The position numbers were made by a program, and so were the translations under genes. Below are positions 5,521 through 22,397 of a stretch of DNA of 64,000 nucleotides, one piece after another. Location of the stretch: IMG/VR virus record IMGVR_UViG_3300027777_000022; one strand, given 5' to 3'. The stretch comes from a virus (taxonomy: Duplodnaviria; Heunggongvirae; Uroviricota; Caudoviricetes). The notes below the pieces were generated by a model that was not told where the DNA came from, ran no database searches, and saw only the letters and a list, made by a program, of their open reading frames with translations. How positions within the stretch are numbered: the first letter of the stretch is position 1; every line of letters begins with the position of its first letter.

Positions 5521-5595
5521 TGGTGCTCCCAACAAGAATTGAACTTGTAGCTCGTCCTTACCAAGGACGTGTATTGCCATTATACTATAGGAGCG
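5521..5595 (-). tRNA. tRNA-Thr(GGT)
   Basis: Hand-folded cloverleaf: acceptor GCTCCTA, anticodon arm CGTCC-TTGGTAA-GGACG, T-arm GTTCAATTC, CCA encoded. Confidence 0.6.
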
Positions 5596-5670
5596 TGGTC
5601 TCTGCGACCAGAATTGAACTGATATTTCGTCTTTAGGAGAGACTGGTTCTATCCATTGAACTACGCAGAG
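5596..5670 (-). tRNA. tRNA-Arg(CCT)
   Basis: Acceptor CTCTGCG/CGCAGAG, anticodon loop CTCCTAA, T-loop TTCAATT, CCA encoded. Confidence 0.55.
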
Positions 5671-5712
5671 ATTTAAAAATCTGATGCACGGTGAAATAAA
5701 TATACATACATT

Positions 5713-6519
5713 ATGTCTAAACTAACTAACTTTCCCACTGTGAACTATATCACTCTATACGAGAACGTGGCCCGTATGGAGTTTATGAATGAGCAGTTGG
5801 CTAGATATGGTATCCGTTATGTGCCATGCTTAAATCATAGATACACCACATTCCAGCATACGATCAATATCACGTGGCCCAACATTATCAGAGAGGACAC
5901 TGAAATATTTCGAGGATTTAGCCATCCGGGAACAGTGATCAGTTATCTAACTGCAATGCGAAATTGGTATGACACCACCAGCGAAGAATATGCAATATTC
6001 TGTGATGACGACATGAGTTTTGAAAGCATTGATCATTGGAGTTTTACCTGGCAAGAATTCTTAGATATGTTACCCAATGATTGGGAATGTGTGCAACTTG
6101 TGCGTATCAACAATTGGATACCAGGCCTGATCAACAATGGATTCAAAGTTGAAGTACCGTCACTGAGTATGAGAGTAAAGGAATGGGATGACTTTGGTGG
6201 TGCTGGACTGTTCAAACGTGCCTACGTCAAAAAAATACTAGATCGACATTGGATAAGTCCTTTGGATTTTAATTTTGAAATACCAAGCCGATACGACCCG
6301 GGATTCTTTTACTATGCCACAATTGAAAATGTGTTGTTTAGTCATCTTGCTGATTCAGCAGTATACAATGTTCCGCTGTTGATGGAAAAACCCTTCCCCT
6401 CAACCTTAGACGTTCCGCAAGCAGTATATTCACACTTGAAATCTTATGAGTATTATTCCGCACTATGGAAGCTGTATGGGCAAGATCTTCCACTGTCGGT
6501 GTTCATGAATCTCAGTTGA
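5713..6519 (+). CDS. glycosyltransferase family 25-like (LPS glycosyltransferase-like)
   Basis: RGFSHPGTVISYLTAMRNW...EYAIFCDDDMSF...DWECVQL fits the GT25 pattern (S-H...EDD...dwD). One of only three plus-strand genes in the window. Confidence 0.4.
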   Translation: MSKLTNFPTVNYITLYENVARMEFMNEQLARYGIRYVPCLNHRYTTFQHTINITWPNIIREDTEIFRGFSHPGTVISYLTAMRNWYDTTSEEYAIFCDDDMSFESIDHWSFTWQEFLDMLPNDWECVQLVRINNWIPGLINNGFKVEVPSLSMRVKEWDDFGGAGLFKRAYVKKILDRHWISPLDFNFEIPSRYDPGFFYYATIENVLFSHLADSAVYNVPLLMEKPFPSTLDVPQAVYSHLKSYEYYSALWKLYGQDLPLSVFMNLS

Positions 6520-6594
6520 TGGTGGGCCCTGCAAGAATCGAACTTGCATCTTGAGTTTCGAAGACTCGGATTCTATCCATTGAACTAAGAGCCC
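6520..6594 (-). tRNA. tRNA-Arg(TCG)
   Basis: Acceptor GGGCTCT/AGGGCCC, anticodon loop CTTCGAA, T-arm GCAAG-TTCGATT-CTTGC, CCA encoded. Confidence 0.55.
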
Positions 6595-6611
6595 TGGCTA
6601 AAATTTTTACT

Positions 6612-8063
6612 TCAATCTAAAGTTTTATCTGCAATGAGTTCAAACAATCTTTTTTTATATTCTGAAAAAAACAAAATTGAATGTACATGAGGTCTATGTG
6701 TATGCCATAGAGATGTAGTTGATATCTGTTTATAATTCATATGAAACATGGTAGCAAGTTTTTGAGCTTTATCAGAATTAAGTTCATTATTTTCCCACGA
6801 TAATGCAAAAGGATTTTCATTGGTTACTGCTCGATATCCAAATTTTTTATAATCTTTAGTAATTTTACTTTCAAATACCAAGCCATTTTCTTTTTTACCA
6901 ATGATCAATGGACGAACTACAACTGTGTCTAGTTTTATTTCATGCGAAATTAACGCATCTAATGTACGTCTAATAGATTCTTCAGATTCGTAAGGAGTAC
7001 CAATGATAAAACTTCCATGTAAGTGAATGTCTGGATAAGTTTCTTTAATGTGCGATATCATTGCTATTTGATTTTCTCTATTGTATCCTTTACCTATAGC
7101 CAATCCAGACTTTCTGTCAAGTGTTTCAATTCCAAACATCATTTTTCTTATTCCGATGTCATATAACATCTGCATTGTGTTAGGGTGCGTACATATTAAA
7201 TCTAATCTGGCATAACACCAAAATTCTGGTTTGAATGGCAATCCTATTATAACTTCTCGTATTTGTATTAATTTATCAACCGAATCATTGAAAGTATCAT
7301 CTGTTATATAATACTGAGTTATACCATAGTTATTAAAATTATATAATAACTCGTCTGCTATTATTTCTGATTCTTTAATAAAATCTAGCTTTTTCTTTCC
7401 GTTCATTGGGTAAGAACAAAATGCACAACTAAATATGCACCCTCTACCAATTTCAATAGGCAATATGGTGTTATTAACTACGTCTTCGGGTAACCATGTC
7501 ATTGAGTCGGTGGTAAATTTATATCCCTCTGCCAGTACATTATTAATAATAATTTTGTTATTGATAATATTTCTATAACTATTTTTTAATGGAGCATTGT
7601 CTTTTACATGATCAACTAAATTTACTATATTTGCTTCTGCATATCCTAATACCAAAAAATCAGCATATTTGCATTTTAAATCTGCACAAATCATTGGACC
7701 ACCAACAGTTATTTTTACCTTATGGTTTAGTCGTTTGATGTGGTAAAAAATTTGATCATCAAATTCAGCTCCTTGGGGGAACAAATTAAAATTTTCCGCA
7801 AGCAAGTCAACTTTTTTAGTGTTTAAAATATTATAGAATGTTGTACTGAACCCAATCAAGTAAGTGTTATCACCTACAGTTGTGTCTAGTAATTTACAAA
7901 TTTCATCAACTGTAAATTTTGAAGTATGGTGTACTACTAAACATGAGTATCCACTTTTCCGAAGGGTATTTGCTAATTTATATGCACCAATTCCGGGCGA
8001 TAGTACGTTATCATCTTGGATTGTAATTACATCAGTGAAAAGAATAACATTATATTTTGACAT
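6612..8063 (-). CDS. B12-binding domain / radical SAM protein
   Basis: CIFSCAFCSY (CxxxCxxC) preceded by an N-terminal Rossmann-like B12-binding-type segment (MSKYNVILFTD...). Confidence 0.65.
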   Translation of the reverse strand: MSKYNVILFTDVITIQDDNVLSPGIGAYKLANTLRKSGYSCLVVHHTSKFTVDEICKLLDTTVGDNTYLIGFSTTFYNILNTKKVDLLAENFNLFPQGAEFDDQIFYHIKRLNHKVKITVGGPMICADLKCKYADFLVLGYAEANIVNLVDHVKDNAPLKNSYRNIINNKIIINNVLAEGYKFTTDSMTWLPEDVVNNTILPIEIGRGCIFSCAFCSYPMNGKKKLDFIKESEIIADELLYNFNNYGITQYYITDDTFNDSVDKLIQIREVIIGLPFKPEFWCYARLDLICTHPNTMQMLYDIGIRKMMFGIETLDRKSGLAIGKGYNRENQIAMISHIKETYPDIHLHGSFIIGTPYESEESIRRTLDALISHEIKLDTVVVRPLIIGKKENGLVFESKITKDYKKFGYRAVTNENPFALSWENNELNSDKAQKLATMFHMNYKQISTTSLWHTHRPHVHSILFFSEYKKRLFELIADKTLD

Positions 8064-8260
8064 GTTTTATTTATCAAAGAAAAACCCTACCGTATGTAAC
8101 AACTTCTCAGAGTGGCAGTTACACAGAGGGCAGGGCCGTGTTATCCGATGGAGTGAAGTTTATACCCGGCCTTTCCTCCAGCTCAAATAAAACATAAGTG
8201 TCCTTTGTTATTCTTATGTTTATTTATATTAGTTCGACGCTTGTGCGCGAACTCAAGGGC

Positions 8261-8348
8261 GGAGAGCAGAGGAGTCGAACCCCATCCCATTTCTGAGAAC
8301 CTGGTTTTCAAGGCCAGTCGCAGGACCATCCCCGCTGCATTACTCTCC
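8261..8348 (-). tRNA. class II tRNA-Ser(TGA)-like, 3' CCA not encoded
   Basis: Acceptor GGAGAGT/GCTCTCC fully paired, D-stem GCAG/CTGC, anticodon loop CTTGAAA, long variable arm, T-loop TTCGACT. 3' tail is GCC, not NCCA, unlike the other tRNAs here. Confidence 0.45.
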
Positions 8349-8492
8349 AAATTGGTGGGATTCGTTTTGAGGCCGGTCCCGGTGAGTAGATCACTACTGC
8401 CTGTTACATCGCATTATTGTACTATTGCTTGCCCAAGGATTTACCGCGGTACCTTGTGACTCATACTGGCGAATGTAACTTCGCCGCTGCTC

Positions 8493-8567
8493 TGGAGCGG
8501 GCAACGAGAATCGAACTCGTGACTTAACTTTGGCAAAGTTATGTGTTACCACTAGCACTATGCCCGC
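8493..8567 (-). tRNA. tRNA-Gly(GCC)
   Basis: Acceptor GCGGGCA/TGCCCGC, anticodon arm TAACT-TTGCCAA-AGTTA, T-loop TTCGATT, CCA encoded. Confidence 0.65.
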
Positions 8568-8602
8568 TTATGTTGTTATTATATATTGAATCTTGAATCA
8601 AG

Positions 8603-9001
8603 TCAAGAGTTTTGTTCTTGGCTGGCACAGTTTGGGCACAGCATTTTCAAATTGTTAGGTGCATTGTTGTCTGGATTGCCATCCATGTGATACATCACAA
8701 ACTTCAACGGCTTGTTCATGTAGCTGGTTATGTCACAGCACTCACATTGTTGTTCACGTACCTGGGCAGCGTCAGACGCTTTTTGCTGTCGGTATTCTTC
8801 TACCACGTCATTGACCTTGACTGCCACTGGTACTGTTTCCATAACCTTGGCCAACTGCTGTACTTCAAACGGAACCAATGAGTTTCTTGCTGCCTCTGAT
8901 GCCTGGCACCGGGTACTGCAAAACCCAGGTGTACGCCGCTCTTGAGACCAAAGATACCGATTTCTACAATGTTCACAGTAATAGGGTTGATGCACAGTCA
9001 T
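8603..9001 (-). CDS. HNH endonuclease
   Basis: C-terminal HMDGNPDNNAPNNLKMLCPNC (H-N-H with flanking Cys pairs); N-terminal CxxC zinc ribbon. Confidence 0.7.
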   Translation of the reverse strand: MTVHQPYYCEHCRNRYLWSQERRTPGFCSTRCQASEAARNSLVPFEVQQLAKVMETVPVAVKVNDVVEEYRQQKASDAAQVREQQCECCDITSYMNKPLKFVMYHMDGNPDNNAPNNLKMLCPNCASQEQNS

Positions 9002-9049
9002 ATAGTATTTATTCTAAATATGGATGCTGCGGCCCAATAAATATTTGCC

Positions 9050-10203: not shown

Positions 10204-10686
10204 TTAAGCTGCTCGGCGATTGCTCAACACCCAATCCAGTCTGTCAGCAGCATAGCTGGCAGCAAAGGCTCGAGGTTTGACCATTGGAATCACATTGCAA
10301 GTGCCTTTGATGTAACCAATTGCTTGGTTAACCACCACGGAGCTCTTGTGCATCTGATCAGGGTTGATGTCCAAGTGTACTTCCACCAGTCGGTCTTCTA
10401 GTACATCACTCATCTTTTGAAACAGTTCTGATACCTTGTACACTTCGTTCATGAGTCTCATAGCAGGCTTGTCGCTGCGTTGATCCCAATCACGTTCACG
10501 TTGTACTTCACCAAAGATTTTGCAGCCATGGCAGCTATCAATGTGTACAACCACTGCCAGCGCATAGTCTGCGTACCATACGCCATTGACTTTTACTCGT
10601 TCGCTGTCGCAGCCTAGATACACCGAAGTTTCTGGACTTTGAGCAGTGATAAATTCTTTGACCTGAGCCATGTCCATTTTTTTCAT
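10204..10686 (-). CDS. hypothetical protein (160 aa)
   Basis: Long ORF; possible RNase H-like fold (YLGCDS ... VVVHIDS) but the call is not secure. Confidence 0.45.
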   Translation of the reverse strand: MKKMDMAQVKEFITAQSPETSVYLGCDSERVKVNGVWYADYALAVVVHIDSCHGCKIFGEVQRERDWDQRSDKPAMRLMNEVYKVSELFQKMSDVLEDRLVEVHLDINPDQMHKSSVVVNQAIGYIKGTCNVIPMVKPRAFAASYAADRLDWVLSNRRAA

Positions 10687-10743
10687 AATTTACTTTCTTT
10701 TATTTAATTAGTGTAGATAATTCTGAGGTCGATAAATAGTACA

Positions 10744-11877: not shown

Positions 11878-11882
11878 CTAAT

Positions 11883-11956
11883 TGGCGTACCCACTAGGAC
11901 TCGAACCTAGACTGACGGTTTTGGAGACCGCGATGCTGCCATTACACTATGGATAC
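11883..11956 (-). tRNA. tRNA-Trp(CCA)
   Basis: Acceptor GTATCCA/TGGGTAC, anticodon arm GCGGT-CTCCAAA-ACCGT, T-loop TTCGAGT, CCA encoded. Confidence 0.6.
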
Positions 11957-12007
11957 ATAAACGTGGTGGAAACGTTGAGATTTGAACTTACGAGAGTTAT
12001 CTTCTAT

Positions 12008-12637: not shown

Positions 12638-12658
12638 ACAAAATGAACCTAATGTTAT

Positions 12659-14233: not shown

Positions 14234-14325
14234 TGGTACCAGCGGAGAGATTCGAACTCTCTCAAGAACGCTAATCTGGCGCTAAAAGGCTTATAAGACC
14301 TCTCTGACTACCCAGTCTCGCTGGC
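14234..14325 (-). tRNA. class II (long variable arm) tRNA, anticodon loop CUUAUAA (UAU?); identity uncertain
   Basis: Acceptor GCCAGCG/CGCTGGT, T-arm GAGAG-TTCGAAT-CTCTC, 22-nt variable region, CCA encoded. Confidence 0.45.
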
Positions 14326-14331: not shown

Positions 14332-14406
14332 TGGTCCGGCGTAACAGAATCGAACTGCTATCTAGGGAGTAGAAATCCCCTGTATTATCCATTATACTAA
14401 CGCCAG
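14332..14406 (-). tRNA. tRNA-Arg(TCT)
   Basis: Anticodon arm GGGGA-TTTCTAC-TCCCT, T-loop TTCGATT, CCA encoded. Confidence 0.55.
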
Positions 14407-14447: not shown

Positions 14448-14534
14448 TGGTGCGACTGGCCGGGATCGAACCGGCACGCCCTCACAGGCGTCAGATTTTA
14501 AGTCTGGTGCGGCTACCAATTACGCCACAGTCGC
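14448..14534 (-). tRNA. tRNA-Leu(TAA), class II
   Basis: Acceptor GCGACTG/CAGTCGC, anticodon loop CTTAAAA, long variable arm, T-loop TTCGATC, CCA encoded. Confidence 0.6.
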
Positions 14535-14538: not shown

Positions 14539-14612
14539 TGGTCTCGGTAGGAAGAATCGAACTTCCGCTTCATGCTCCCAAAGCACGGGTGATACCATTT
14601 CACTATACCGAG
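14539..14612 (-). tRNA. tRNA-Pro(TGG)
   Basis: Acceptor CTCGGTA/TACCGAG, anticodon loop TTTGGGA, CCA encoded. Confidence 0.55.
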
Positions 14613-14619: not shown

Positions 14620-14697
14620 TGGAGCAACGGGAGGGATTTGAACCCCCGGTTTTACGGATTTGCAATCCGTTGCATTGGGCCGCTCTGCCACCGTTGC
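14620..14697 (-). tRNA. tRNA-Cys(GCA)
   Basis: Acceptor GCAACGG/CCGTTGC, anticodon arm ACGGA-TTGCAAA-TCCGT, T-loop TTCAAAT, CCA encoded. Confidence 0.65.
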
Positions 14698-14701: not shown

Positions 14702-14777
14702 TGGTACCTGGTGACAGACTCGAACTGTCATCGCTCTCCGTGTAAAGGAGACGTATAACCTCTCTACGCAACCAGGC
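14702..14777 (-). tRNA. tRNA-Val(TAC)
   Basis: Anticodon arm TCTCC-TTTACAC-GGAGA, T-loop TTCGAGT, CCA encoded. Confidence 0.6.
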
Positions 14778-14816
14778 AGTTTTTTTGTTTTGAATTGTTA
14801 AAATCTATATATCCAC

Positions 14817-14895
14817 ATACACTTGCAGGAATTGAACCTGCCTACCCCGGATTGACCAGAGCTGTAATCCGCTACATCTGCCTGGCCCGGGCATT
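14817..14895 (-). ncRNA. tRNA-like element with canonical T-arm (GCAGG-TTCAATT-CCTGC) but no foldable acceptor stem and no CCA; possible degenerate or interrupted tRNA
   Basis: T-arm is perfect, but I could not pair an acceptor stem by hand; an internal GGATT...AATCC helix carries a 12-nt loop. Confidence 0.25.
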
Positions 14896-14986
14896 TGTGC
14901 ATGTGGATATAAAGACTTGGACTGTTTCCAGTCTTTATATCATGTAAATTTTTAATGAGCGTATGTTAATTTCTTAACATGCTGCA

Positions 14987-15015
14987 ATTATAGCATCACC
15001 CGTGATACTTGTCAA
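14987..15015 (-). promoter_or_regulatory. sigma70-like promoter TTGACA-N17-TATAAT inside tRNA array
   Basis: Minus strand: -35 TTGACA (plus 15010-15015), 17-nt spacer, -10 TATAAT (plus 14987-14992). Confidence 0.5.
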
Positions 15016-15016
15016 C

Positions 15017-15090
15017 TGGTAGACTCTACAAGAATTGAACTTGTGTCTGTGCAATGTCAATGCACCGTTCTACCATTGAACTAAGAGTCT
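15017..15090 (-). tRNA. tRNA-Val(GAC)
   Basis: Acceptor AGACTCT/AGAGTCT, anticodon arm GTGCA-TTGACAT-TGCAC, T-loop TTCAATT, CCA encoded. Confidence 0.5.
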
Positions 15091-15094: not shown

Positions 15095-15169
15095 TGGTGG
15101 AGGATAGCAGATTCGAACTGCTGATGCTGCCATGCCATGGCAGTATGTTTCCAACTATATCAATCCCCC
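15095..15169 (-). tRNA. tRNA-Ala(GGC) with G3-U70
   Basis: Acceptor GGGGGAT/ATCCTCC gives the G3-U70 wobble that is the Ala identity element; anticodon arm CTGCC-ATGGCAT-GGCAG; CCA encoded. Confidence 0.55.
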
Positions 15170-15173: not shown

Positions 15174-15249
15174 TGGTGCCCTAGGTGGGACTCGAACCCA
15201 CAGAACCTGGTTTCTAAGACCAGTACGTATGCCATTCCGTCACCAGGGC
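15174..15249 (-). tRNA. tRNA with anticodon UAG (Leu-decoding) but short variable arm
   Basis: Anticodon arm CTGGT-CTTAGAA-ACCAG, T-arm GTGGG-TTCGAGT-CCCAC, only about 5-nt variable loop (class I geometry), CCA encoded. Confidence 0.45.
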
Positions 15250-15250
15250 A

Positions 15251-15325
15251 TGGTGGTCATGGTTGGTATCGATCCAACCTCCTCGCCTTATGAGGGCGGT
15301 GCGCATCCATCTACGCCACATGACC
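15251..15325 (-). tRNA. tRNA-Met(CAT) (initiator, elongator or Ile-lysidine type not resolved)
   Basis: Acceptor GGTCATG/CATGACC, anticodon loop CTCATAA, T-loop ATCGATA, CCA encoded. Confidence 0.55.
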
Positions 15326-15505: not shown

Positions 15506-15580
15506 TGGGTTGACCAATGGGTATCGATCCCATGCTACGACTTTCACAGAGTCGGGTGCTTCCATTACACCATGGCCAAC
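15506..15580 (-). tRNA. tRNA-His(GTG) including G-1
   Basis: Anticodon arm CGACT-CTGTGAA-AGTCG, discriminator C, and an extra 5' G (plus C at 15580) as expected for His. Confidence 0.6.
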
Positions 15581-15883: not shown

Positions 15884-15962
15884 CATTGTAGGCAGGACTC
15901 GAACCTGCATTCGCCTCTTGAGCGAGGCTTTCCTACCATTAGAAGACTACGAGTTCATCGGG
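15884..15962 (-). ncRNA. tRNA-like element (T-arm GCAGG-TTCGAGT-CCTGC; 6-nt anticodon-like loop GCUCAA; no CCA)
   Basis: T-arm and D-like GG present, but anticodon loop is non-canonical and the acceptor pairs poorly; possible pseudogene or unusual tRNA. Confidence 0.25.
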
Positions 15963-16082: not shown

Positions 16083-16157
16083 TGGTCGGGGCACAGGGAC
16101 TCGAACCCTGATAGACCGGGTAAAAGCCGGTTATTCTAGCCATTGAATTATACCCCG
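16083..16157 (-). tRNA. tRNA-Lys(TTT)
   Basis: Acceptor CGGGGTA/TGCCCCG, anticodon arm ACCGG-CTTTTAC-CCGGT, T-loop TTCGAGT, CCA encoded. Confidence 0.65.
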
Positions 16158-16161
16158 TATA

Positions 16162-16236
16162 TGGTCCACTCTCTGAGACTCGAACTCAGTTCTCTCTGCT
16201 TAAGAGGCAGGACTTCACCTTCAAAGTTTAGAGTGG
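16162..16236 (-). tRNA. tRNA-Lys(CTT)
   Basis: Acceptor CCACTCT/AGAGTGG, anticodon loop CTCTTAA, T-arm CTGAG-TTCGAGT-CTCAG, CCA encoded. Confidence 0.5.
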
Positions 16237-16346: not shown

Positions 16347-16375
16347 ATTATACAACAATTGAGGTTTGTTGTCAA
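16347..16375 (-). promoter_or_regulatory. sigma70 consensus promoter TTGACA-N17-TATAAT at head of tRNA array
   Basis: Minus strand: -35 TTGACA (plus 16370-16375), 17-nt spacer, -10 TATAAT (plus 16347-16352), reading toward tRNAs 16236 down to 14234. Confidence 0.55.
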
Positions 16376-16376
16376 C

Positions 16377-16682: not shown

Positions 16683-16766
16683 TATTTATCAAATTTAGAT
16701 AAAATTTGATAGCCTTGAGAGATAATGGTTCTCCAACTGTTATACCTTTTGATCAACGGCCATGCA

Positions 16767-16843
16767 TGGTACCACCTGAGAGATTCGAACTCCCAACCCC
16801 CGGATTCGTAATCCAGTGCTCTATCCAATTGAGCCAAGGCGGT
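16767..16843 (-). tRNA. tRNA-Arg(ACG)
   Basis: Acceptor ACCGCCT/AGGTGGT, anticodon arm CTGGA-TTACGAA-TCCGG, T-loop TTCGAAT, CCA encoded. Confidence 0.6.
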
Positions 16844-16937
16844 GAAAAACAGTCCATATTGTATGCAATTCTTGGATTGTTGTCAACCAGTTTTTTTTGT
16901 ATTTTTACAACAAATTTTTTGGATTGCAACTTTCTTT

Positions 16938-17672
16938 TTATGCCCAGTTATTATCTAACGGCAGTGTTCTCAGCGTAATTTCAAAATTGCCTACTTTAAG
17001 TTCTGTTCCATTGGCATTTTGTAAATGATGTGATAATAAACTTTCAGGGTGAAAAACCAGCCCCAAGTCGTTATATTCTTTTAAATAATTAACTATATTA
17101 GAATATATCGTCATACTGTCAGAGTTACCAATAGCAAACTGATCATTACAAGGTGGTGTCCCATACCATTGATTTCCTGGCATAATAATTGTATTTGATG
17201 ATGGAATATTATTGCGAACATCAACTTCGTGAAGTAACCCCACATCTGATCTTGTCCTAATAACTATATCATATTTAAAATTATTTTCATTTTCATAACT
17301 AGTCCTTAGTTCGTTAGTTTTGAATATGTTGTAAAACATTTTGAAATATTGTTCAGGCGGTGAATGTACTCCTGATTGATCAGATGGATGATTACATTGG
17401 GGCCAAACTTGAGTATTCGCATCTGATATTTCAAATTTTTTAAGAAAATTATTAGGTGGAAGATTTTTTTCGATTATAGACTTGGCCCAACACGGATCAT
17501 AATCAACCCAAGTATCGTGCATAACAATGCTGACCCATTTTTGAGGTTCGTAATTTTTATTAGTCAGATAAACAAACCAATCAGCTTGATCGTACCCTTT
17601 TAAATTGTTTAAAAAAAGTTGCAGATCTTCTGTAAATCTTGGTTGTCCAGAAAGCAATATAGCAATTCTCAT
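16938..17672 (-). CDS. hypothetical protein (244 aa)
   Basis: Long ORF; no motif recognised. Confidence 0.5.
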   Translation of the reverse strand: MRIAILLSGQPRFTEDLQLFLNNLKGYDQADWFVYLTNKNYEPQKWVSIVMHDTWVDYDPCWAKSIIEKNLPPNNFLKKFEISDANTQVWPQCNHPSDQSGVHSPPEQYFKMFYNIFKTNELRTSYENENNFKYDIVIRTRSDVGLLHEVDVRNNIPSSNTIIMPGNQWYGTPPCNDQFAIGNSDSMTIYSNIVNYLKEYNDLGLVFHPESLLSHHLQNANGTELKVGNFEITLRTLPLDNNWA

Positions 17673-18115
17673 AATTTATCCTTTATTAACTGTACAAAAT
17701 CACTACATATGCCGTAACAATTTGTGTCAATATTTTTTAGCTCTGGATCATGCCACTCGGGTAGTACCGCAATGCTGCGGCATGTTAGCTCTTTACCTGG
17801 ATAAGTCCATATAAAATTGTTGCTGGTAAGAACAAAATCATCTTCTTGATGCCAGAAATAATACAGACTAGTGTTAGTCAACCACCTCAGTGCTGCTAAA
17901 TTTTTGGCATGAATCCATAGACCAAATTTACTCAAGAACTCTTTGTTAACTGGATAGTCCGGTCTATCATGACCTAGATAAAATTCTGAGTTGACTACCC
18001 AAAGATCAATTTCACAATCGAACTCTTGAGATAACGTCAATTCAATTTGTTCAGGGCGATTTTCTAAATTAACATCTGGACCGTTGGTTAATCCTCTATG
18101 TGCTATTAGTTTCAT
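17669..18115 (-). CDS. glycerophosphodiester phosphodiesterase (GDPD)-like, short
   Basis: N-terminal MKLIAHRG...E-x-D (HRG motif of GDPD family). Confidence 0.4.
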   Translation of the reverse strand: MKLIAHRGLTNGPDVNLENRPEQIELTLSQEFDCEIDLWVVNSEFYLGHDRPDYPVNKEFLSKFGLWIHAKNLAALRWLTNTSLYYFWHQEDDFVLTSNNFIWTYPGKELTCRSIAVLPEWHDPELKNIDTNCYGICSDFVQLIKDKL

Positions 18116-18116
18116 T

Positions 18117-19493
18117 TTATTCGCTTTTATGATTTTTTAAAAATTGTTCTAAATCTTCTGGGGTACCAATTCCCCACATTTTGCCAACCCTGTTTACTTT
18201 AATTTTTTTACCGTCTGCAATTGCTTGATTGAATACAGGACATACATAAAACTCGTTATTCACACGAATATTTTTTGCAATCATTTCTTCAGCATATTTG
18301 ACATAGTCACTGCCATGTTTCCAATAGTAAATTCCTACTGTTGCTTCCGTACTAATAATTTTCTTTTCGGCCACTTCACTGACAAACCCATCGTGGCCAA
18401 GTTTTGCATAACTCCATTTGGGATGCCTGGCTTCAAATGTAACAATACCGCCATCAATCTCATCAGCAGTAAACGCATACATACACTCGTTGCTATTCCA
18501 TTCAACATATTGATCACTGTTGGCTATCACCAATGGTGCGTCTGAATTTATATAATCTTTGGCTAACAGCGTAGAGCATGCCGCGCCGTCTGTAATTCCA
18601 TTAACCTGTACAATATCACACCCTGGAGATATGAGATTAAGCAGGTATTTTAAATTGTATTTTTCATAGTGTTCCTGCTGCACAATAAAAATATAGTGTG
18701 CGTCTATGTTCAAGTTTTCCACAACTACTTGAATCATGGGCTTGCTGTTTACTTCAATCAAGGGTTTAGGAAAGGTATACCCGTGTTGTGCAAATCTACT
18801 ACCTGCTCCAGCCATTGGTACTAGTACATTAAGTTTACTATCTTTCCACGGTATAGAGTTTGATGTCATTTGCGAATCCATTTCGTGCAATTTTTTATTA
18901 ATTTTATTCCATGTAACATCGTGGGAATTTTTCACCGCTAACAGGTGTGCCCCACTGTCTATGGCACCTTGTCTGCCGATGTGACTGTCTTCAATTATAA
19001 GGGTGTTCCTAGGAATTGCATCAAGCATGGTCATACACTGCCAATACATCTCAGGGTAAGGTTTTGGGTGCTGCACGTCTTGGTTACTGACGTAGTAATC
19101 AACATATTCCATTACTCCAATTTTTAATAGGCTAAGTTTAACTGTTTCTCTAATGCTGTTACTGGCAACTGCTATAACATACCCTGATGCTTTGAGTTTA
19201 GAAAATATATCTACTAGTTTGTTATCAATAGGAAACTTTTTAATTAGTTCGAAAGTGGCCAGCTGTTTGCGCCGCCATACTACATCATGATAGTCTAAAG
19301 GTAGTCCCTTAGATTCTGATAACATCTTTAGTTTCTTAGTGGTATTGAGACCGTCATATACTGAAAGATGCTCGTCTCTAGTAATTACATATTTGGAGTC
19401 AACGCTGCCCAGTGCATCATTAAGGCTTTGGTAGTGTAATTCTCTACTTTCAATTAACACTCCATCTAGGTCAAATATAATTAATTTACTCAT
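18117..19493 (-). CDS. bifunctional HAD-family phosphatase / sugar-phosphate nucleotidyltransferase
   Basis: N-terminus IIFDLDGVLIES (HAD motif I). C-terminal half LVPMAGAGSRF...KPLIEV is the nucleotidyltransferase G-x-G-x-R signature. Confidence 0.6.
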   Translation of the reverse strand: MSKLIIFDLDGVLIESRELHYQSLNDALGSVDSKYVITRDEHLSVYDGLNTTKKLKMLSESKGLPLDYHDVVWRRKQLATFELIKKFPIDNKLVDIFSKLKASGYVIAVASNSIRETVKLSLLKIGVMEYVDYYVSNQDVQHPKPYPEMYWQCMTMLDAIPRNTLIIEDSHIGRQGAIDSGAHLLAVKNSHDVTWNKINKKLHEMDSQMTSNSIPWKDSKLNVLVPMAGAGSRFAQHGYTFPKPLIEVNSKPMIQVVVENLNIDAHYIFIVQQEHYEKYNLKYLLNLISPGCDIVQVNGITDGAACSTLLAKDYINSDAPLVIANSDQYVEWNSNECMYAFTADEIDGGIVTFEARHPKWSYAKLGHDGFVSEVAEKKIISTEATVGIYYWKHGSDYVKYAEEMIAKNIRVNNEFYVCPVFNQAIADGKKIKVNRVGKMWGIGTPEDLEQFLKNHKSE

Positions 19494-19546
19494 ATAGTTA
19501 TTTAAGCTGTTGGTGAGTTGTTATGAACTCATGTATTAACTAAGAA

Positions 19547-19625
19547 TGGATGCGGAGGCAGGATTCGCACCTGCGATCTCCAGCTTATGAGACTGGCGGG
19601 GACGGCTAGACTCCCCTACTCCGCA
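19547..19625 (-). tRNA. tRNA-Met(CAT), second copy with unusually long D-loop
   Basis: Acceptor TGCGGAG/CTCCGCA, anticodon loop CTCATAA, T-arm GCAGG-TGCGAAT-CCTGC, CCA encoded. Confidence 0.5.
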
Positions 19626-19639
19626 ATAACTTGTAAAAC

Positions 19640-20272
19640 CTAACGGTTTAGATTTTTTAAAATATGCTCGGCAAATGATTCATGTGCTGATCTGTAAAAA
19701 TGTATTTTTTCCGTATGAGAAAAATTGTGTTGTTGGCACCAAGCCATAAAATCTATATCCACAGGCCACTTTACCGTGGTAGGCCAAATAAAATCAGTTA
19801 CTGGCCAAAAACTATCTATGTTGATAACTTGGATACCTTGTGCCTGGGCTAATGCATTCAGAGCCATGATATTTTTTATTTTATTTAACATACCTAACTC
19901 AACGCTAGTTGAATACAACACCCAATATTTAAAATAATCAAGGTCAATGTTATCAGGCGGAACTCCTGGTACTAATCTTATCCAATGTCCATCAAAAATT
20001 TCACTTCTATTTACTCCTGACCAACAAGCAATCACAAGATCATTGTTGGTGAGTTTAGTCTCTGTAAATAATCTAAACACTGCATCATTGCTGCCGCCGG
20101 ATATTGCTCGATTGATTGGATCATATCCTAATGCTCGTGCAATTTGTGCAGGATAGCAATAGGTAAGTTCATAGTCGGACGCTTGTTCAAAACTATCAAA
20201 AACCAGTCCGGGTTCTTTATTTATTTCTGCACCTACTGCATGGCTGCATCCTAGTATTAATGCTTTTTTCAT
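19640..20272 (-). CDS. SGNH-like hydrolase paralog (catalytic Ser replaced; GCSHAVGAE)
   Basis: N-terminus ALILGCSHAVGAEIN parallels the VNGDSHTAGAEAV of the SGNH protein at 42533..43249. Confidence 0.4.
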   Translation of the reverse strand: MKKALILGCSHAVGAEINKEPGLVFDSFEQASDYELTYCYPAQIARALGYDPINRAISGGSNDAVFRLFTETKLTNNDLVIACWSGVNRSEIFDGHWIRLVPGVPPDNIDLDYFKYWVLYSTSVELGMLNKIKNIMALNALAQAQGIQVINIDSFWPVTDFIWPTTVKWPVDIDFMAWCQQHNFSHTEKIHFYRSAHESFAEHILKNLNR

Positions 20273-20277
20273 ATTAA

Positions 20278-20350
20278 TGGTGCCCCATGAGAGAATCGAA
20301 CTCCCGTCAACGGATTACAAAACCGTGATAATGCCATTATACTAATAGGG
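20278..20350 (-). tRNA. tRNA-Thr(TGT)
   Basis: Acceptor GCCCTAT/ATGGGGC, anticodon loop TTTGTAA, T-loop TTCGATT, CCA encoded. Confidence 0.5.
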
Positions 20351-20357
20351 CTTGAAT

Positions 20358-20433
20358 TTGGCTCCGACCGCTGGAATCGAACCAGCCTTCAAGGATTAAC
20401 AGTCCTCTGCCCACACCGTGTTTGCTTCGTCGG
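20358..20433 (-). tRNA. tRNA-Asn(GTT)
   Basis: Anticodon arm GAGGA-CTGTTAA-TCCTT, discriminator G, CCA encoded. Confidence 0.55.
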
Positions 20434-20457
20434 AATAATACTTTATATATCTCTTGT

Positions 20458-20543
20458 TTGGTGGACAGTAATGGATTTGAACCACTGCGCTTTTTACAGA
20501 ACGGATTTACAGTCCGTCGCCTTCAACCACTCGGCCAACTGTC
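20458..20543 (-). tRNA. tRNA-Tyr(GTA), class II
   Basis: Acceptor GGACAGT/ACTGTCC, anticodon arm ACGGA-CTGTAAA-TCCGT, long variable arm, T-loop TTCAAAT, CCA encoded. Confidence 0.6.
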
Positions 20544-20775
20544 CTGATTGAATTTGCAAGTAGTTGCTCCCTGTATTATAGCAACCATTCACCCTATGCT
20601 AAAGCCGGCCGGGATTTTGGTACGTCACTTGGGATACTGATCCAGATGATACGCCAATTGTATGCCAGTCCCACTCAAGCGACCAGCCGGGCATTGAACC
20701 CGCTACCTTCTACTGTACAGTACCTTCGAAGAATACTGCACAGCGTGACTTTCTCTTGCTGACACTTACAAAACT

Positions 20776-20850
20776 TGGTGCCACGAGCTGGACTCGAACC
20801 AGCCACACACAGATTTTCAGTCTGCTGCTCTACCTGATGAGCTACCGCGA
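20776..20850 (-). tRNA. tRNA-Phe(GAA)
   Basis: D-arm GCTCATCAGGTAGAGC, anticodon loop CTGAAAA, T-loop TTCGAGT, CCA encoded. Confidence 0.6.
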
Positions 20851-20857
20851 CATTGTA

Positions 20858-20947
20858 TTGGCGGAACGACTGAGACTCGAACTCAGAAACCGGATTACGC
20901 CGATCGACAGATTAGCAATCTGCTCCAATACCATTATGGGACCGTTC
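20858..20947 (-). tRNA. tRNA-Ser(GCT), class II
   Basis: Acceptor GGAACGG/TCGTTCC, anticodon loop TTGCTAA, long variable arm, CCA encoded. Confidence 0.55.
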
Positions 20948-20956
20948 CTTAAAACT

Positions 20957-21030
20957 ATGGAGCGGGGTGCGAGAATCGAACTCGCGCTATCAGCTTGGAA
21001 GGCTGAAATCCTACCATTAAATGAACCCCG
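20957..21030 (-). tRNA. tRNA-Gly(TCC)
   Basis: Acceptor GCGGGGT/ACCCCGC, anticodon arm TCAGC-CTTCCAA-GCTGA, T-loop TTCGATT, CCA encoded. Confidence 0.65.
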
Positions 21031-21260
21031 CATAAAAAATTGGAGACAGCCTACACAAAAGGTTTGCCTAATGTGCCGTCCACTTTATCCGCTTATCCTA
21101 GCCACTTGCCGATCACTAGATCAGGGCAGCAAAGATAAGTTTCAGTCTCCGAAAACTGTTGTCGGTATAAGGAGTCTATCCCCGACTGTGCAACACTAAT
21201 ACTCTATCCTGCGTAAGGTGTCTCCATAAACGGAGCCTTAGCGCGGTTGCATCTGAAAAC

Positions 21261-21335
21261 TGGTGGAGGCCGGGGGTATCGAACCCCTCTAGACAAGATG
21301 CTTGCAAAGCAACTCCGCACCCCTGTGCTGCCCCC
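21261..21335 (-). tRNA. tRNA-Ala(TGC) with G3-U70
   Basis: Acceptor GGGGGCA/GGCCTCC gives G3-U70; anticodon loop TTTGCAA; T-loop TTCGATA; CCA encoded. D-arm is short. Confidence 0.45.
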
Positions 21336-21343
21336 ATATTGTT

Positions 21344-21419
21344 TGGCTCCATCTGTTGGATTCGAACCAACCTCTTCCGGTTAACAGCCGGGGGTACTCG
21401 CCAAGAATACTAAGATGGA
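21344..21419 (-). tRNA. tRNA-Asn(GTT), second divergent copy
   Basis: Acceptor TCCATCT/AGATGGA, anticodon loop CTGTTAA, discriminator G, CCA encoded. Confidence 0.45.
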
Positions 21420-21426
21420 ATAAAAT

Positions 21427-21513
21427 TGGTGGAGCAGAGAGGGTTCGAACCTCTACAGAACTTGCTGACCTCCGGGTTACAGCCGGGTACCCTTCCTCTC
21501 AGGTGTCTACTCC
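21427..21513 (-). tRNA. tRNA-Tyr(GTA)-like, second class II copy
   Basis: Acceptor GGAGTAG/CTGCTCC, anticodon loop CTGTAAC, long variable arm, T-arm AGAGG-TTCGAAC-CCTCT, CCA encoded. Confidence 0.45.
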
Positions 21514-21575
21514 ATTAACTAATTTGAAGTCCTGCTTGACATTGTAGTGCAGGTAACTGTGTCGTCTTCAAAACT

Positions 21576-21649
21576 TGGTCCTCTGTAGAAGAATTGAACT
21601 TCTGTCTATCGGTTATCAGCCGATTGCTCTGCCATTGAGCTAACGGAGG
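21576..21649 (-). tRNA. tRNA-Ile(GAT)
   Basis: D-arm GCTCAATGGCAGAGC, anticodon arm ATCGG-CTGATAA-CCGAT, T-loop TTCAATT, CCA encoded. Confidence 0.6.
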
Positions 21650-21657
21650 AAAAAACT

Positions 21658-21733
21658 TGGCGGTCTTAGGGGGTAACGATCCCCACTCTTACGGCGTGAC
21701 AAGCCGTCGTGCGTCCATGAACACTTTAAGACC
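21658..21733 (-). tRNA. tRNA-Asp(GTC)
   Basis: Acceptor GGTCTTA/TAAGACC, anticodon arm ACGGC-TTGTCAC-GCCGT, atypical T-loop ATCGTTA, CCA encoded. Confidence 0.5.
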
Positions 21734-21739
21734 TAAATT

Positions 21740-21814
21740 TGGTACTGCGTACGGGTATCGAGCCCGTCTAGTCACCTTGAAAGGGTGATGACCTCACCTG
21801 AAGTCGAACGCAGT
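21740..21814 (-). tRNA. tRNA-Glu(TTC)
   Basis: Acceptor ACTGCGT/ACGCAGT, anticodon arm TCACC-CTTTCAA-GGTGA, T-loop CTCGATA, CCA encoded. Confidence 0.5.
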
Positions 21815-21834
21815 GTATCTTTGTTATATTTCAA

Positions 21835-21900
21835 CACACTACCAGTCCCCAGGATTCGAACCTGTTTCTTTAGTAGTTTACCTTGACGTTTGCAGTCGGG
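21835..21900 (-). ncRNA. tRNA-like fragment (T-arm CAGG-TTCGAAT-CCTG only)
   Basis: T-arm motif without a recognisable acceptor or anticodon arm; possible tRNA remnant. Confidence 0.2.
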
Positions 21901-22071
21901 CAAGTAATGTATTGAAATATAACTTCTCGCCACGCTGTCTTTCACAAGATTGCGGACTGTTATCACCTTGCAGCAAACTCGTGCTTGGTGTTGTCTTGCG
22001 AGAAAAATTATACTTTATAAGTTGTTAATGAACCTGTTGCAACCAACTCGATCGTTTGCTGCTAAGTGTTT

Positions 22072-22100
22072 ATTATAACACCGTTTGCTATACTGGTCAA
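22072..22100 (-). promoter_or_regulatory. sigma70 consensus promoter TTGACC-N17-TATAAT (tandem copy 1)
   Basis: Minus strand: -35 TTGACC (plus 22095-22100), 17-nt spacer, -10 TATAAT (plus 22072-22077). Confidence 0.55.
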
Positions 22101-22166
22101 CCGGTTTTGCAAAGCCCTACAACTTGGAAGGACTCTACAAATCTCGCTGCTTTCTAACTAGTCTCT

Positions 22167-22195
22167 AGTATAACACCATGTGCGATACTGGTCAA
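22167..22195 (-). promoter_or_regulatory. sigma70-like promoter TTGACC-N17-TATACT (tandem copy 2)
   Basis: Near-duplicate of the promoter 95 bp downstream: tataacacc-N8-atactggtcaac. Confidence 0.5.
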
Positions 22196-22238
22196 CTTGT
22201 TTTGTAATGCCCTTCTTGTCTGAAGGGTCTTTGTTACA

Positions 22239-22312
22239 TGGCAGACGTGCCAGGGCTCGAACCTAGAACGACAGAGTCAAAGTCTGTTGTGTTACCATTA
22301 CACCACACGCCT
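22239..22312 (-). tRNA. tRNA-Gln(TTG)
   Basis: Acceptor AGGCGTG/CACGTCT, D-arm GTGT-AATGGTA-ACAC, anticodon arm ACAGA-CTTTGAC-TCTGT, CCA encoded. Confidence 0.55.
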
Positions 22313-22318
22313 ATAAAT

Positions 22319-22397
22319 TTGGTACCCTTGCTCAGATTCGAACTGAGAGAACTCTTCCTTTTGAGAGAAGCGACTTTGCCAATTTGTCCACAAGGGC
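22319..22397 (-). tRNA. tRNA with anticodon CAA (Leu-decoding) but short variable arm
   Basis: Acceptor GCCCTTG/CAAGGGT, anticodon arm CTTCT-CTCAAAA-GGAAG, T-arm CTCAG-TTCGAAT-CTGAG, CCA encoded; 11-nt D-loop. Confidence 0.45.

Follow-up and report, generated by a model that had tools for sequence, protein, structure and literature searches.

The viral record IMGVR_UViG_3300027777_000022 was analysed over a stretch of 64,000 nucleotides (nt), here called the window, whose numbering is used for all positions; the span examined, 5521-22397, holds an array of transfer RNA (tRNA) genes. A first-pass annotation had described there roughly 35-38 tRNA genes on one strand representing all 20 amino acids, 33 of them canonical with an encoded CCA end, and the gene calls agree with it. 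Default ARAGORN, run on both strands, reports 34 tRNA genes in the window, of which 33 lie within the span, every one of them on the minus strand, the plus strand having no call there; an encoded CCA ends 33/33 of them, and the array represents 20/20 amino acids. A lowered ARAGORN threshold adds Ala(UGC) at 21261-21335 and a Ser(UGA)-like gene at 8258-8348, the only two of the previously noted anticodons that escape the default run, and the array is tallied as 33 solid genes, two plausible genes and two relics. Two kinds of atypical members are of main concern here, a 92-nt tRNA with five arms and the anticodon UAU, and two tRNAs with leucine anticodons and short variable arms. The tRNA genes and relics are listed below, with the supporting program in brackets.

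5521..5594, minus strand: tRNA-Thr(GGU), CCA encoded (ARAGORN; Rfam tRNA 65.1 bits)
5596..5670, minus strand: tRNA-Arg(CCU) (ARAGORN; Rfam 54.2 bits)
6520..6594, minus strand: tRNA-Arg(UCG) (ARAGORN; Rfam 61.7 bits)
8258..8348, minus strand: Ser(UGA)-like gene, class II (ARAGORN at lowered threshold; Rfam tRNA-Sec 34.9 bits)
8493..8567, minus strand: tRNA-Gly(GCC) (ARAGORN; Rfam)
11883..11956, minus strand: tRNA-Trp(CCA) (ARAGORN; Rfam)
14234..14325, minus strand: 92-nt five-arm tRNA, anticodon UAU (ARAGORN 104.1; Rfam tRNA-Sec 30.8 bits)
14332..14406, minus strand: tRNA-Arg(UCU) (ARAGORN; Rfam)
14448..14534, minus strand: tRNA-Leu(UAA), canonical class II, 87 nt (ARAGORN; Rfam)
14539..14612, minus strand: tRNA-Pro(UGG) (ARAGORN; Rfam)
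14620..14697, minus strand: tRNA-Cys(GCA), 86% identical to a Yersinia jumbo phage tRNA-Cys (ARAGORN; Rfam)
14702..14777, minus strand: tRNA-Val(UAC) (ARAGORN; Rfam)
14816..14902, minus strand: tRNA relic, T arm perfect (GCAGG-TTCAATT-CCTGC), rest degenerate (lowered ARAGORN; T-arm scan)
15017..15090, minus strand: tRNA-Val(GAC) (ARAGORN; Rfam 70.9 bits)
15095..15169, minus strand: tRNA-Ala(GGC) (ARAGORN; Rfam)
15174..15249, minus strand: type-I tRNA-Leu(UAG), 76 nt, with A73, U8, A14, A15 and U48 (ARAGORN; Rfam 60 bits)
15251..15325, minus strand: CAU tRNA (Met or Ile2), T loop ATCGATA (ARAGORN; Rfam)
15506..15579, minus strand: tRNA-His(GUG), encoded G-1 opposite C73 (ARAGORN; Rfam)
15884..15953, minus strand: tRNA relic, good T arm, 6-nt anticodon loop, no CCA (Rfam 29.8 bits; lowered ARAGORN)
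16083..16157, minus strand: tRNA-Lys(UUU) (ARAGORN; Rfam)
16162..16236, minus strand: tRNA-Lys(CUU) (ARAGORN 102.7; not reported by Rfam)
16767..16843, minus strand: tRNA-Arg(ACG) (ARAGORN; Rfam)
19547..19625, minus strand: CAU tRNA, 79 nt, U73, 5-bp D stem (ARAGORN; Rfam)
20278..20351, minus strand: tRNA-Thr(UGU) (ARAGORN; Rfam)
20359..20434, minus strand: tRNA-Asn(GUU), copy 1 (ARAGORN; Rfam 33.3 bits)
20459..20544, minus strand: tRNA-Tyr(GUA), copy 1, class II (ARAGORN; Rfam)
20776..20851, minus strand: tRNA-Phe(GAA) (ARAGORN; Rfam)
20859..20948, minus strand: tRNA-Ser(GCU), class II (ARAGORN; Rfam)
20958..21031, minus strand: tRNA-Gly(UCC) (ARAGORN; Rfam)
21261..21335, minus strand: tRNA-Ala(UGC), G3.U70, CCA, weak D arm, 4-bp T stem (ARAGORN 98.7, lowered threshold only)
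21344..21419, minus strand: tRNA-Asn(GUU), copy 2 (ARAGORN; Rfam)
21427..21513, minus strand: tRNA-Tyr(GUA), copy 2 (ARAGORN; Rfam 35.3 bits)
21576..21649, minus strand: tRNA-Ile(GAU) (ARAGORN; Rfam 67 bits)
21658..21733, minus strand: tRNA-Asp(GUC), T loop ATCGTTA (ARAGORN 108.4; missed by Rfam even with lax filters)
21740..21814, minus strand: tRNA-Glu(UUC), T loop CTCGATA (ARAGORN; Rfam 42.8 bits with lax filters)
22239..22312, minus strand: tRNA-Gln(UUG) (ARAGORN; Rfam)
22320..22397, minus strand: type-I tRNA-Leu(CAA), 78 nt, 6-nt variable loop, G1.U72, A73 (ARAGORN; Rfam 53.7 bits)
31172..31245, minus strand: CAU tRNA outside the span, no encoded CCA (ARAGORN; Rfam 59.1 bits)

At its gathering score, the Rfam tRNA model recognizes 29 of the 33 tRNAs in the span, together with the CAU tRNA at 31172 and the relic at 15884-15953. 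Glu(UUC) is reported once the Rfam filters are relaxed, and ARAGORN alone calls Lys(CUU), Asp(GUC) and the UAU tRNA. Bacterial-type tRNAs, as modelled by RF00005 and ARAGORN, are cloverleaves with a 7-base-pair (bp) acceptor stem, a D arm, an anticodon arm and a 5-bp T arm with a TTCRA loop, and by their scores the array genes belong to this class. It had been allowed that automated finders might reject most of the calls or realign the short-arm genes as class-II leucine tRNAs; instead, the calls were accepted and the short arms kept. Read with standard wobble rules, the anticodons cover all 61 sense codons, so that the array amounts to a complete replacement of the tRNA set and not to a selective addition. 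Adaptation of translation to codon usage is a plausible explanation for such an array, and it is virtually certain that the region is a genuine phage tRNA array.

The most unusual member is the 92-nt tRNA at 14234-14325, which had been noted as a class-II tRNA whose loop reads UAU and does have a long extra arm and the loop CU-UAU-AA. In the ARAGORN fold, a 7-bp acceptor stem with G1.U72 is followed by one linker base (A8), a D arm with a 4-bp stem and a 4-nt loop containing GG, two bases, and an anticodon arm with a 6-bp stem. After one further base comes the extra arm, with 5 bp, the 7-nt loop CAGAUUA and five unpaired bases (CUUGA) behind it, and the molecule closes with a 5-bp T arm with the loop TTCGAAT, A73 and CCA. 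The centre of the extra-arm loop reads GAU, the normal Ile anticodon, and exactly five bases follow this arm, which is the length of a class-I variable loop. The Rfam tRNA model makes no call, and tRNA-Sec, the best-scoring Rfam family, reaches 30.8 bits where the threshold is 47. A tRNA-Sec identity was rejected on this score, as well as on the anticodon (UAU, not UCA) and on the acceptor stem of 7 rather than 8 bp.

Relatives of this tRNA were searched for with two patterns, in both of which the anticodon was left free. The first pattern matched 58 IMG/VR contigs, and with the uncultured contig L001, the nearest relative of the window, it gave 59 loci, whose 59 copies all carry UAU; a looser pattern matched at least 119 viral contigs, and in all at least 170 relatives were found in viral contigs. 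Of the 171 pattern matches listed, 170 are real copies with UAU and the 171st is a chance match, so that no other anticodon occurs among them, and a further copy found by BLAST in the cyanophage S-SKS1 has UAU as well. Among the matches listed there are 82 distinct sequences; A73 is present in 82/82, and CCA is encoded in 62/82, the cyanophage-like subfamily being mostly without it.

An alignment of 51 distinct sequences to the five-helix model is 99.5% paired, compared with 37-44% in slid controls, and 19 of its 27 pairs change on both sides, a value reached by 0 of 500 shuffles; all five helices covary. The pair that closes the T stem (66:82) is formed in 51/51 sequences as GC, CG, UA or AU, and since it covaries and the A at position 8 never pairs with column 82, the acceptor/T branch is 7/5, not 8/4 or 9/3. 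The 8/4 fold of allo-tRNAs was ruled out on the same two grounds. The alignment keeps G1.U72 in 46/51 sequences, and little or no variation is seen in the D arm, in a G.U pair within the anticodon stem, in the anticodon loop (C-U-UAU-A), in the extra-arm loop or in the GA that precedes the T stem. Within the anticodon loop, C32, U33, U34, A35, U36 and A37 are invariant, and position 38 is A in most copies. The extra-arm loop, which lay outside the first search pattern, is identical in 59/59 sequences of that search and reads CCGAUUA in S-SKS1, so the family form C(A/C)GAUUA is nearly invariant; inspection by eye revealed no convincing base pairing between this loop and the anticodon loop.

Copies of the long UAU tRNA form a conserved family that is seen almost exclusively in phages, and nearly every copy lies inside a tRNA array. 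When the looser pattern was applied to 185,579 species of bacteria and archaea, each represented by one genome, it matched in four places, one of them by chance and three on contigs of metagenome-assembled genomes (MAGs) with phage-type tRNA arrays (NZ_JBBAKG010000001.1, or L168; CAUYTX010000437.1, or L170; and L169). Two of these contigs have 20-21 tRNAs in 8 kilobases (kb), the MAGs are labelled Haliscomenobacter in one case and Gammaproteobacteria in two, and L168 also has homologues of phage genes of the window; all three are probably phage contigs binned into MAGs. A bacterial origin of the UAU tRNA was rejected on this outcome. Three cultured phages carry the long form, namely Sinorhizobium phage Phosso, where it is annotated as tRNA-Ile(tat), and Synechococcus phages S-SRM01 and S-SKS1, whose GenBank records have no annotation for it. 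A CAU tRNA immediately follows the long UAU tRNA in 38 loci, and a conserved trio of long UAU tRNA, CAU tRNA and Leu(UAA) is seen in cyanophages (5000-5733 of the S-SRM01 locus L061, 5996-6377 of the S-SKS1 locus L173, and contigs L045 and L082), its Leu(UAA) being type I in S-SRM01 and S-SKS1. Seven cyanophage-like contigs (L098, L118, L132, L140, L144, L147 and L163) have a canonical tRNA(UAU) of 73-75 nt together with a long one of 88-90 nt, and both forms share the anticodon loop CUUAUAA. No description of a long UAU phage tRNA was found in the literature, and an earlier description elsewhere is possible.

The second kind of atypical member is the leucine tRNA with a short arm. The first-pass annotation had reported short class-I variable arms in the UAG and CAA tRNAs, and ARAGORN folds them likewise, Leu(UAG) with 76 nt and a 5-nt variable loop and Leu(CAA) with 78 nt and a 6-nt variable loop. 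Both thus combine a Leu anticodon with a short variable loop, as in type-I tRNA-Leu, and lack the long arm and the length of about 85-90 nt of class-II tRNA-Leu, which in this array are found in Leu(UAA) at 14448-14534 only. It had been suggested that the short-arm Leu-anticodon tRNAs and the gene without CCA deserved checking, and both the short-arm Leu and the UAU tRNAs turned out to be conserved families rather than one-offs. Homologues of Leu(UAG) with 76-77 nt are annotated as tRNA-Leu in 393 phage records, including T5-like Salmonella, Escherichia and Proteus phages and phages of Aeromonas, Vibrio, Xanthomonas, Streptomyces and Bacillus; T5-like phage S124 has a copy of 74 nt that lacks CCA. 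Across 172 sources (171 fetched loci and the window), a length of 79 nt or less was found for 51/55 Leu(CAA), 32/88 Leu(UAA) and 33/67 Leu(UAG) genes, often beside class-II Leu tRNAs, and the anticodons seen on phage type-I Leu tRNAs are CAA, UAG, UAA and GAG.

When 29 distinct Leu(CAA) sequences are aligned, the cloverleaf is 99.8% paired (slid controls 39-55%), with changes on both sides in 15 of its 20 pairs, a value that none of 500 shuffles reached. U8, A14, A15, G18, G19 and A73 are invariant across the 29 sequences, G1.U72 occurs in 26/29, and the final base of the variable loop is U, consistent with an A15:U48 pair; compared with the window copy, the L001 orthologue shows compensatory changes. 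In the comparison of aligned codons described below, orthologues have Leu opposite 69% of the TTG sites of the window and 74% of its CTA sites. The elements kept in the phage type-I Leu tRNAs match the recognition elements reported for bacterial leucyl-tRNA synthetase (LeuRS), and in Streptomyces coelicolor a bacterial LeuRS charges a type-I tRNA-Leu(CAA) (PMC6614811). The long arm, dispensable for LeuRS, would be all that these tRNAs have lost; they keep A73, U8:A14, A15:U48 and G18G19 and would insert Leu at CUN (UAG tRNA) and UUG (CAA tRNA) codons. Weighing against this, the E. coli LeuRS is said to charge type-II tRNA-Leu only (PMC6614811), and T5-like coliphages carry type-I Leu tRNAs despite that restriction. 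It is nevertheless likely that the type-I tRNAs accept Leu, and it is concluded that they would be working parts of a type common in phages. Annotated T5-like phages already contain type-I Leu tRNAs, on which no comment was made, and the kind is known from Streptomyces and mitochondria. An incomplete literature search found no description of phage type-I tRNA-Leu, which may have been described elsewhere.

As for the function of the UAU tRNA, AUA accounts for 25% of the Ile codons in 48 open reading frames of the window (242 of 14,573 codons). Window codons were compared with the aligned codons of homologous genes in related viral loci at 40% identity or more. The ATA sites of the window (n = 111, few and non-independent) align with ATA in 25%, ATT/ATC in 25%, Leu in 12%, Val in 13% and Ser in 1% of cases. 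For window ATT/ATC sites, the figures are 6% ATA, 63% ATT/ATC, 11% Leu, 11% Val and 1% Ser, and for window Leu-codon sites 1% ATA, 7% ATT/ATC, 72% Leu, 3% Val and 1% Ser. As far as so indirect a comparison with a modest sample goes, AUA appears to be a codon with an Ile profile at somewhat less conserved positions, and not Leu- or Ser-like. Recoding of AUA to Leu or Ser was rejected at the evolutionary level by this ortholog codon comparison.

There is about an even chance that the long UAU tRNA is an AUA-reading tRNA-Ile. Such a tRNA should have UAU in a canonical loop with U33 and A37, as well as A73, and all of these are found; this is the most economical reading because the anticodon loop is canonical, A73 is conserved and the loop is identical to that of the short UAU tRNAs. 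The 92-nt tRNA would then be charged with isoleucine and read AUA, providing a decoder independent of the lysidine (TilS) pathway of the host. A number of points weigh against this role, beginning with the small and non-independent set of ATA sites. The isoleucyl-tRNA synthetase (IleRS) of the E. coli type is inefficient at charging tRNAs with UAU, and on E. coli ribosomes such a tRNA, when unmodified, decodes AUG as well (PMC3575796), so that a tRNA-Ile(UAU) should work badly in a TilS-containing host without an added trick. A ground for caution is also that UAU is regarded as a "prohibited" or avoided anticodon in bacteria and their phages (PMC8007984). Seven loci hold both the canonical and the long UAU tRNA, which would be odd if they did the same job, and simple AUA decoding does not explain why the extra-arm loop and the D arm are nearly invariant across very different hosts. 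Moreover, allo-tRNA(UAU), structurally the nearest described, was inactive in translation assays (PMC5389517). The order UAU then CAU in 38 loci fits a competition by tRNA-Met that limits misreading of AUG, which is only a lead. A more specific and rather speculative possibility is that the invariant extra arm, with GAU at the centre of its loop, acts together with the Sec-like core, either supplying the recognition by IleRS that a U34 anticodon would miss in hosts of the TilS type or stiffening the body so that AUA and not AUG is read, which would make the molecule a virus-specific five-arm tRNA-Ile(UAU). If true, phages of many bacterial phyla would read AUA without lysidine, and the family would represent a new structural class of elongator tRNA with a new identity or fidelity mechanism.

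Other functions have to be weighed against isoleucine insertion. Since LeuRS and SerRS (seryl-tRNA synthetase) do not read the anticodon, the long UAU tRNA might be a missense or recoding tRNA that inserts Leu (LeuRS acting via A73 and G1.U72) or Ser (SerRS acting via the long arm) at AUA, as proposed likewise for nematode nev-tRNA-Ile(UAU) and some allo-tRNAs. The long extra arm and the acceptor features A73 and G1.U72 (46/51), common to type-I Leu(CAA) (26/29), speak for it; nev-tRNA-Ile(UAU) is reported to be leucylated in vitro (PMC4300185, PMC3333845), and allo-tRNAs whose anticodons are not those of Ser are predicted to accept Ser all the same (PMC5389517). It is improbable, however, as ATA sites pair with Leu no more than ATT/ATC sites do (12% and 11%, against 72% at Leu sites) and with Ser in 1%, while the 4-bp D stem with its tetraloop, A8 and the lack of an A14-type D loop leave the molecule without the core elements of LeuRS recognition. 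The discriminator is never G, the usual one for Ser, and the five unpaired bases after the extra arm are unlike Ser or Leu class-II tRNAs. Somewhat less doubtful, though still unlikely, is a tRNA-shaped RNA that acts outside decoding, as a decoy or sponge for a host anticodon nuclease or another defence directed at tRNAs, or as the ligand of a phage or host protein that binds the extra-arm loop, and that is charged incidentally or never. Such a role would suit the invariance of the extra-arm loop, D arm and anticodon loop across phages of alphaproteobacterial, cyanobacterial and unknown hosts, the canonical tRNA(UAU) in the same seven loci, the RNA-repair genes adjoining the arrays, and the failure of allo-tRNA(UAU), which is linked to toxin-antitoxin loci, to translate (PMC5389517). 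It sits poorly with the A73 of every copy, the CCA of 62/82 distinct sequences, and a canonical 12-bp acceptor/T branch, TTCGA T loop and GG in the D loop that suit EF-Tu and the ribosome, nor does it account for an anticodon loop (CUUAUAA) exactly as in the canonical short UAU tRNAs of the same phages or for the placement, nearly always, inside ordinary tRNA arrays.

The extra hairpin could also be the decoding loop itself, with CA-GAU-UA as an Ile GAU anticodon loop and the UAU hairpin as an insertion at position 26. Both readings give one and the same secondary structure, the linker CUUGA before the T stem has the length of a class-I variable loop, and GAU stays at the loop centre even in S-SKS1. 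Yet position 33 of such a loop would be A or C rather than the near-universal U, and position 37 would be U rather than a purine, while the UAU loop has the canonical C32, U33 and A37 and mostly A38; an ordinary tRNA-Ile(GAU) is already present in most arrays, and ARAGORN and the Rfam tRNA-Sec model both put the anticodon in the UAU loop, which makes this alternative very improbable. The array does contain relics (14816-14902 and 15884-15953) and a weakened Ser(UGA) gene, and the odd genes might accordingly be taken for decaying pseudogenes or chance folds. This last idea is already contradicted by the covariation, which in both odd families extends to every helix and is seen over dozens of distinct sequences, and its probability is negligible.

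The remaining irregular members of the array are simpler. The Ser(UGA)-like gene at 8258-8348 had been described as a class-II gene without an encoded CCA, and its 3' end indeed reads G73 followed by CCC in place of CCA. It has mismatches in the anticodon stem (C.A) and the T stem (U.U), retains an acceptor stem of the Ser type along with a large D loop and the long arm, and scores below the tRNA-Sec gathering score of 47 with its 34.9 bits. The counterpart in L001 is intact, with CCA. UCA makes up 21% of the Ser codons, and the array holds no other reader of UCN; the gene is either a weakened copy needing 3' repair by the CCA-adding enzyme, or it is decaying. Three elements retaining only a good T arm had been reported, of which two were recovered as perfect T arms in a regular-expression scan outside the called genes (14816-14902 and 15884-15953), and the third is absent from that scan. 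The G3-U70 pair noted in Ala(TGC) is present together with CCA at 21261-21335, although Rfam sees there only a tmRNA-like acceptor (16 bits), and the G-1 noted for His(GTG) was also seen.

The CAU tRNA at 31172-31245 lies 9 kb beyond the array and, alone among the confident tRNA calls of the window, has no encoded CCA. No initiator hallmarks were found in the three CAU tRNAs of the window, and their sequences fit both Met and Ile2. Four tRNAs have an unusual T loop (ATCGATA, ATCGTTA or CTCGATA), namely CAU at 15251-15325, His at 15506-15579, Asp at 21658-21733 and Glu at 21740-21814, with A or C replacing the near-universal T54; the GGATCGTTACC motif of the T loop is also found in some Ile(GAU) tRNAs of related contigs.

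The window encodes a family-B DNA polymerase of the T4 type (phrog_262, E 4e-190), whose best tblastn matches are in Sinorhizobium phage Phosso (49%) and Agrobacterium phage Atu_ph07 (43%), followed by the Rak2/GAP32/CBB group (41-42%). The nearest polymerases belong to phages of 350-490 kb, the Rak2/GAP32/CBB type having 350 kb. A 5'-3' exonuclease, an S-adenosylmethionine (SAM) synthetase, several radical-SAM enzymes and sugar-modifying enzymes are also encoded, and the tRNA genes are clustered on one strand among phage replication genes, as in jumbo-phage arrays. By its gene content, the window is identified as DNA of a T4-related jumbo phage. At the DNA level, the array has no close match in 50,697 phage records, where only the tRNA-Cys match was found. 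In L001, one gene inside the array is 71% identical in amino acids, and this contig has 37 tRNAs in near-identical order, a permuted transfer-messenger RNA (tmRNA) and the same odd members. The notion of a near-complete tRNA set in a large phage is borne out by these affinities, since AP-J-162, a relative in the same jumbo group, has 66 tRNAs and a tmRNA, and Atu_ph07 has 33 tRNAs (PMC11242549). Promoters and neighbouring genes are as follows.

about 2966-3366, minus strand: permuted tmRNA (Rfam tmRNA_permuted 100.7 bits; alpha_tmRNA 73.2 bits)
3347-3319, minus strand: promoter of the tmRNA
8578..8606, minus strand: sigma-70 consensus promoter (11/12), directly upstream of Gly(GCC) (consensus scan)
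10204-10686, minus strand: RNase-H-like protein inside the array (Pfam PF04308; phrog_11311)
14987..15015, minus strand: perfect sigma-70 promoter (TTGACA-17-TATAAT, extended TG), upstream of the cluster from Val(UAC) to UAU
16347..16375, minus strand: perfect sigma-70 consensus promoter, upstream of the Lys pair
16858..16886, minus strand: sigma-70 consensus promoter (11/12), upstream of Arg(ACG)
22072..22100, minus strand: sigma-70 consensus promoter (11/12), upstream of the Glu-Asp-Ile-Tyr-Asn cluster
23886..24833, minus strand: T4 Rnl1-type RNA ligase (Pfam RNA_lig_T4_1 3.5e-14; phrog_562 1.6e-50)
28467-28970, minus strand: HD-domain protein
29032..29652, minus strand: metallophosphoesterase (Pfam Metallophos; phrog_547 7e-52)
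36302-37324, minus strand: second RNA ligase (Pfam RNA_ligase and PHA02142 OB-fold)

Sites of the form TTGACA-17-TATAAT with at most one mismatch number 19 in the window, all on the minus strand, where 0.62 would be expected by chance. Five of the 19 stand directly upstream of tRNA clusters (8606-8578, 15015-14987, 16375-16347, 16886-16858 and 22100-22072) and one upstream of the tmRNA, and because of these promoters the tRNA clusters look, judging from the consensus, like early transcription units read by the host RNA polymerase. The promoters at 37779, 38940 and 39316 have in common an extended TTGACC-NGAATTG motif.

A set of RNA-repair-like genes lies beside the array, comprising the Rnl1 ligase, the HD protein, the metallophosphoesterase and the second RNA ligase. 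The predicted context of the Rnl1 ligase is tRNA repair, and that of the metallophosphoesterase RNA end-healing; in tblastn searches, homologues of the latter adjoin tRNA arrays in 26 related viral loci. The RNase-H-like protein is present in 22 tRNA-array loci, in three related loci with an identity of 93-97%; it may act in tRNA processing or be a factor associated with the arrays. Between the tRNA clusters, the regions 6612-8063, 10744-14166 and 16938-20272 hold protein genes of low G+C content (0.30-0.38 against about 0.44 elsewhere) with a high use of AUA and UUA, including a radical-SAM enzyme and a HAD/nucleotidyltransferase fusion, and these genes look like later insertions into the array. 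The tmRNA was missed by default ARAGORN, and at a lowered threshold the permuted gene is found with its tag not identified; aligned to the L001 tmRNA (tag ANDEQFALAA), the tag frame ends in ...ANDELFALAA*. This tag presumably resembles betaproteobacterial or gammaproteobacterial tags, which is a hint about the host.

As a whole, the locus is best explained, with a probability of about 60%, as a jumbo-phage array with working type-I Leu and five-arm UAU-Ile members; which synthetase charges each odd tRNA, and that each is used by the ribosome, is inferred. About 35 working or nearly working tRNAs would be made from several short clusters, most of them behind a consensus sigma-70 promoter, with RNA ligases, a phosphoesterase and a tmRNA adjoining. 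Such a full set might let the phage keep translating when host tRNAs are scarce, mismatched to its codons or cut by defence nucleases. The array is a further case of a jumbo phage that has a complete decoder set together with a tmRNA and genes for RNA repair, which is useful and expected. Short-arm Leu tRNAs are routine in phage arrays, including those of T5-like coliphages, while the textbook bacterial tRNA-Leu is class II. The UAU family is structurally non-canonical and escapes the Rfam tRNA model; its charging and the invariance of its extra arm bear on the rules of tRNA identity and on orthogonal tRNA design, and the family also bears on how viruses avoid dependence on host tRNA modification. 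Phosso, S-SRM01 and S-SKS1 offer three culturable systems that carry it.

The array as such is of a known kind for T4-related jumbo phages. Like the arrays of Atu_ph07, AP-J-162/Phosso and the Rak2/GAP32 group, it comes with T4-type replication genes (polymerase 41-49% identical), dozens of one-strand tRNAs for most or all amino acids, a tmRNA, RNA ligases and other translation-related genes. It differs from them in the permuted, two-piece type of its tmRNA and in the lack of a close DNA match in the 50,697 phage records, L001 being the nearest. The type-I Leu tRNAs resemble the type-I Leu(CAA) of S. coelicolor (PMC6614811), which likewise has a Leu anticodon on a class-I-sized body, keeps U8:A14 and coexists with class-II tRNA-Leu in the same genome. 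Those described here, however, are phage-encoded, widespread and of several anticodons, while that paper is silent on phages, and A73, invariant in phage Leu(CAA), is dispensable for the S. coelicolor enzyme.

The UAU family shares a long extra arm, a D-arm tetraloop and a 6-bp anticodon stem with the allo-tRNA(UAU) and tRNA-Sec-like molecules of Mukai et al. (PMC5389517), UAU being the commonest anticodon of allo-tRNAs, and tRNA-Sec is also the best Rfam match of the window copy. In contrast, allo-tRNAs have an 8/4 or 9/3 branch, G73 or U73 and a D stem of 5-6 bp, where the phage family has 7/5, always A73 and 4 bp, and allo-tRNA(UAU) is bacterial and linked to toxin-antitoxin loci, where the phage family belongs to phage tRNA arrays. 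Nematode nev-tRNA-Ile(UAU) (PMC3333845, PMC4300185) is likewise class-II-like with a long extra arm and UAU, but it is eukaryotic, has a Leu-like body and is charged with Leu, whereas the AUA sites of the phage family appear Ile-like and its D arm is not Leu-like. The tRNA-Ile(UAU) of Mycoplasma mobile and lactic acid bacteria (PMC3575796) reads AUA without lysidine and has a canonical loop and A73, as the phage tRNA does. Those tRNAs are ordinary 76-nt class-I molecules that need an adapted IleRS (Arg for Trp905) and an adapted ribosome, while the phage family has an extra arm and hosts that are expected to have the TilS system.

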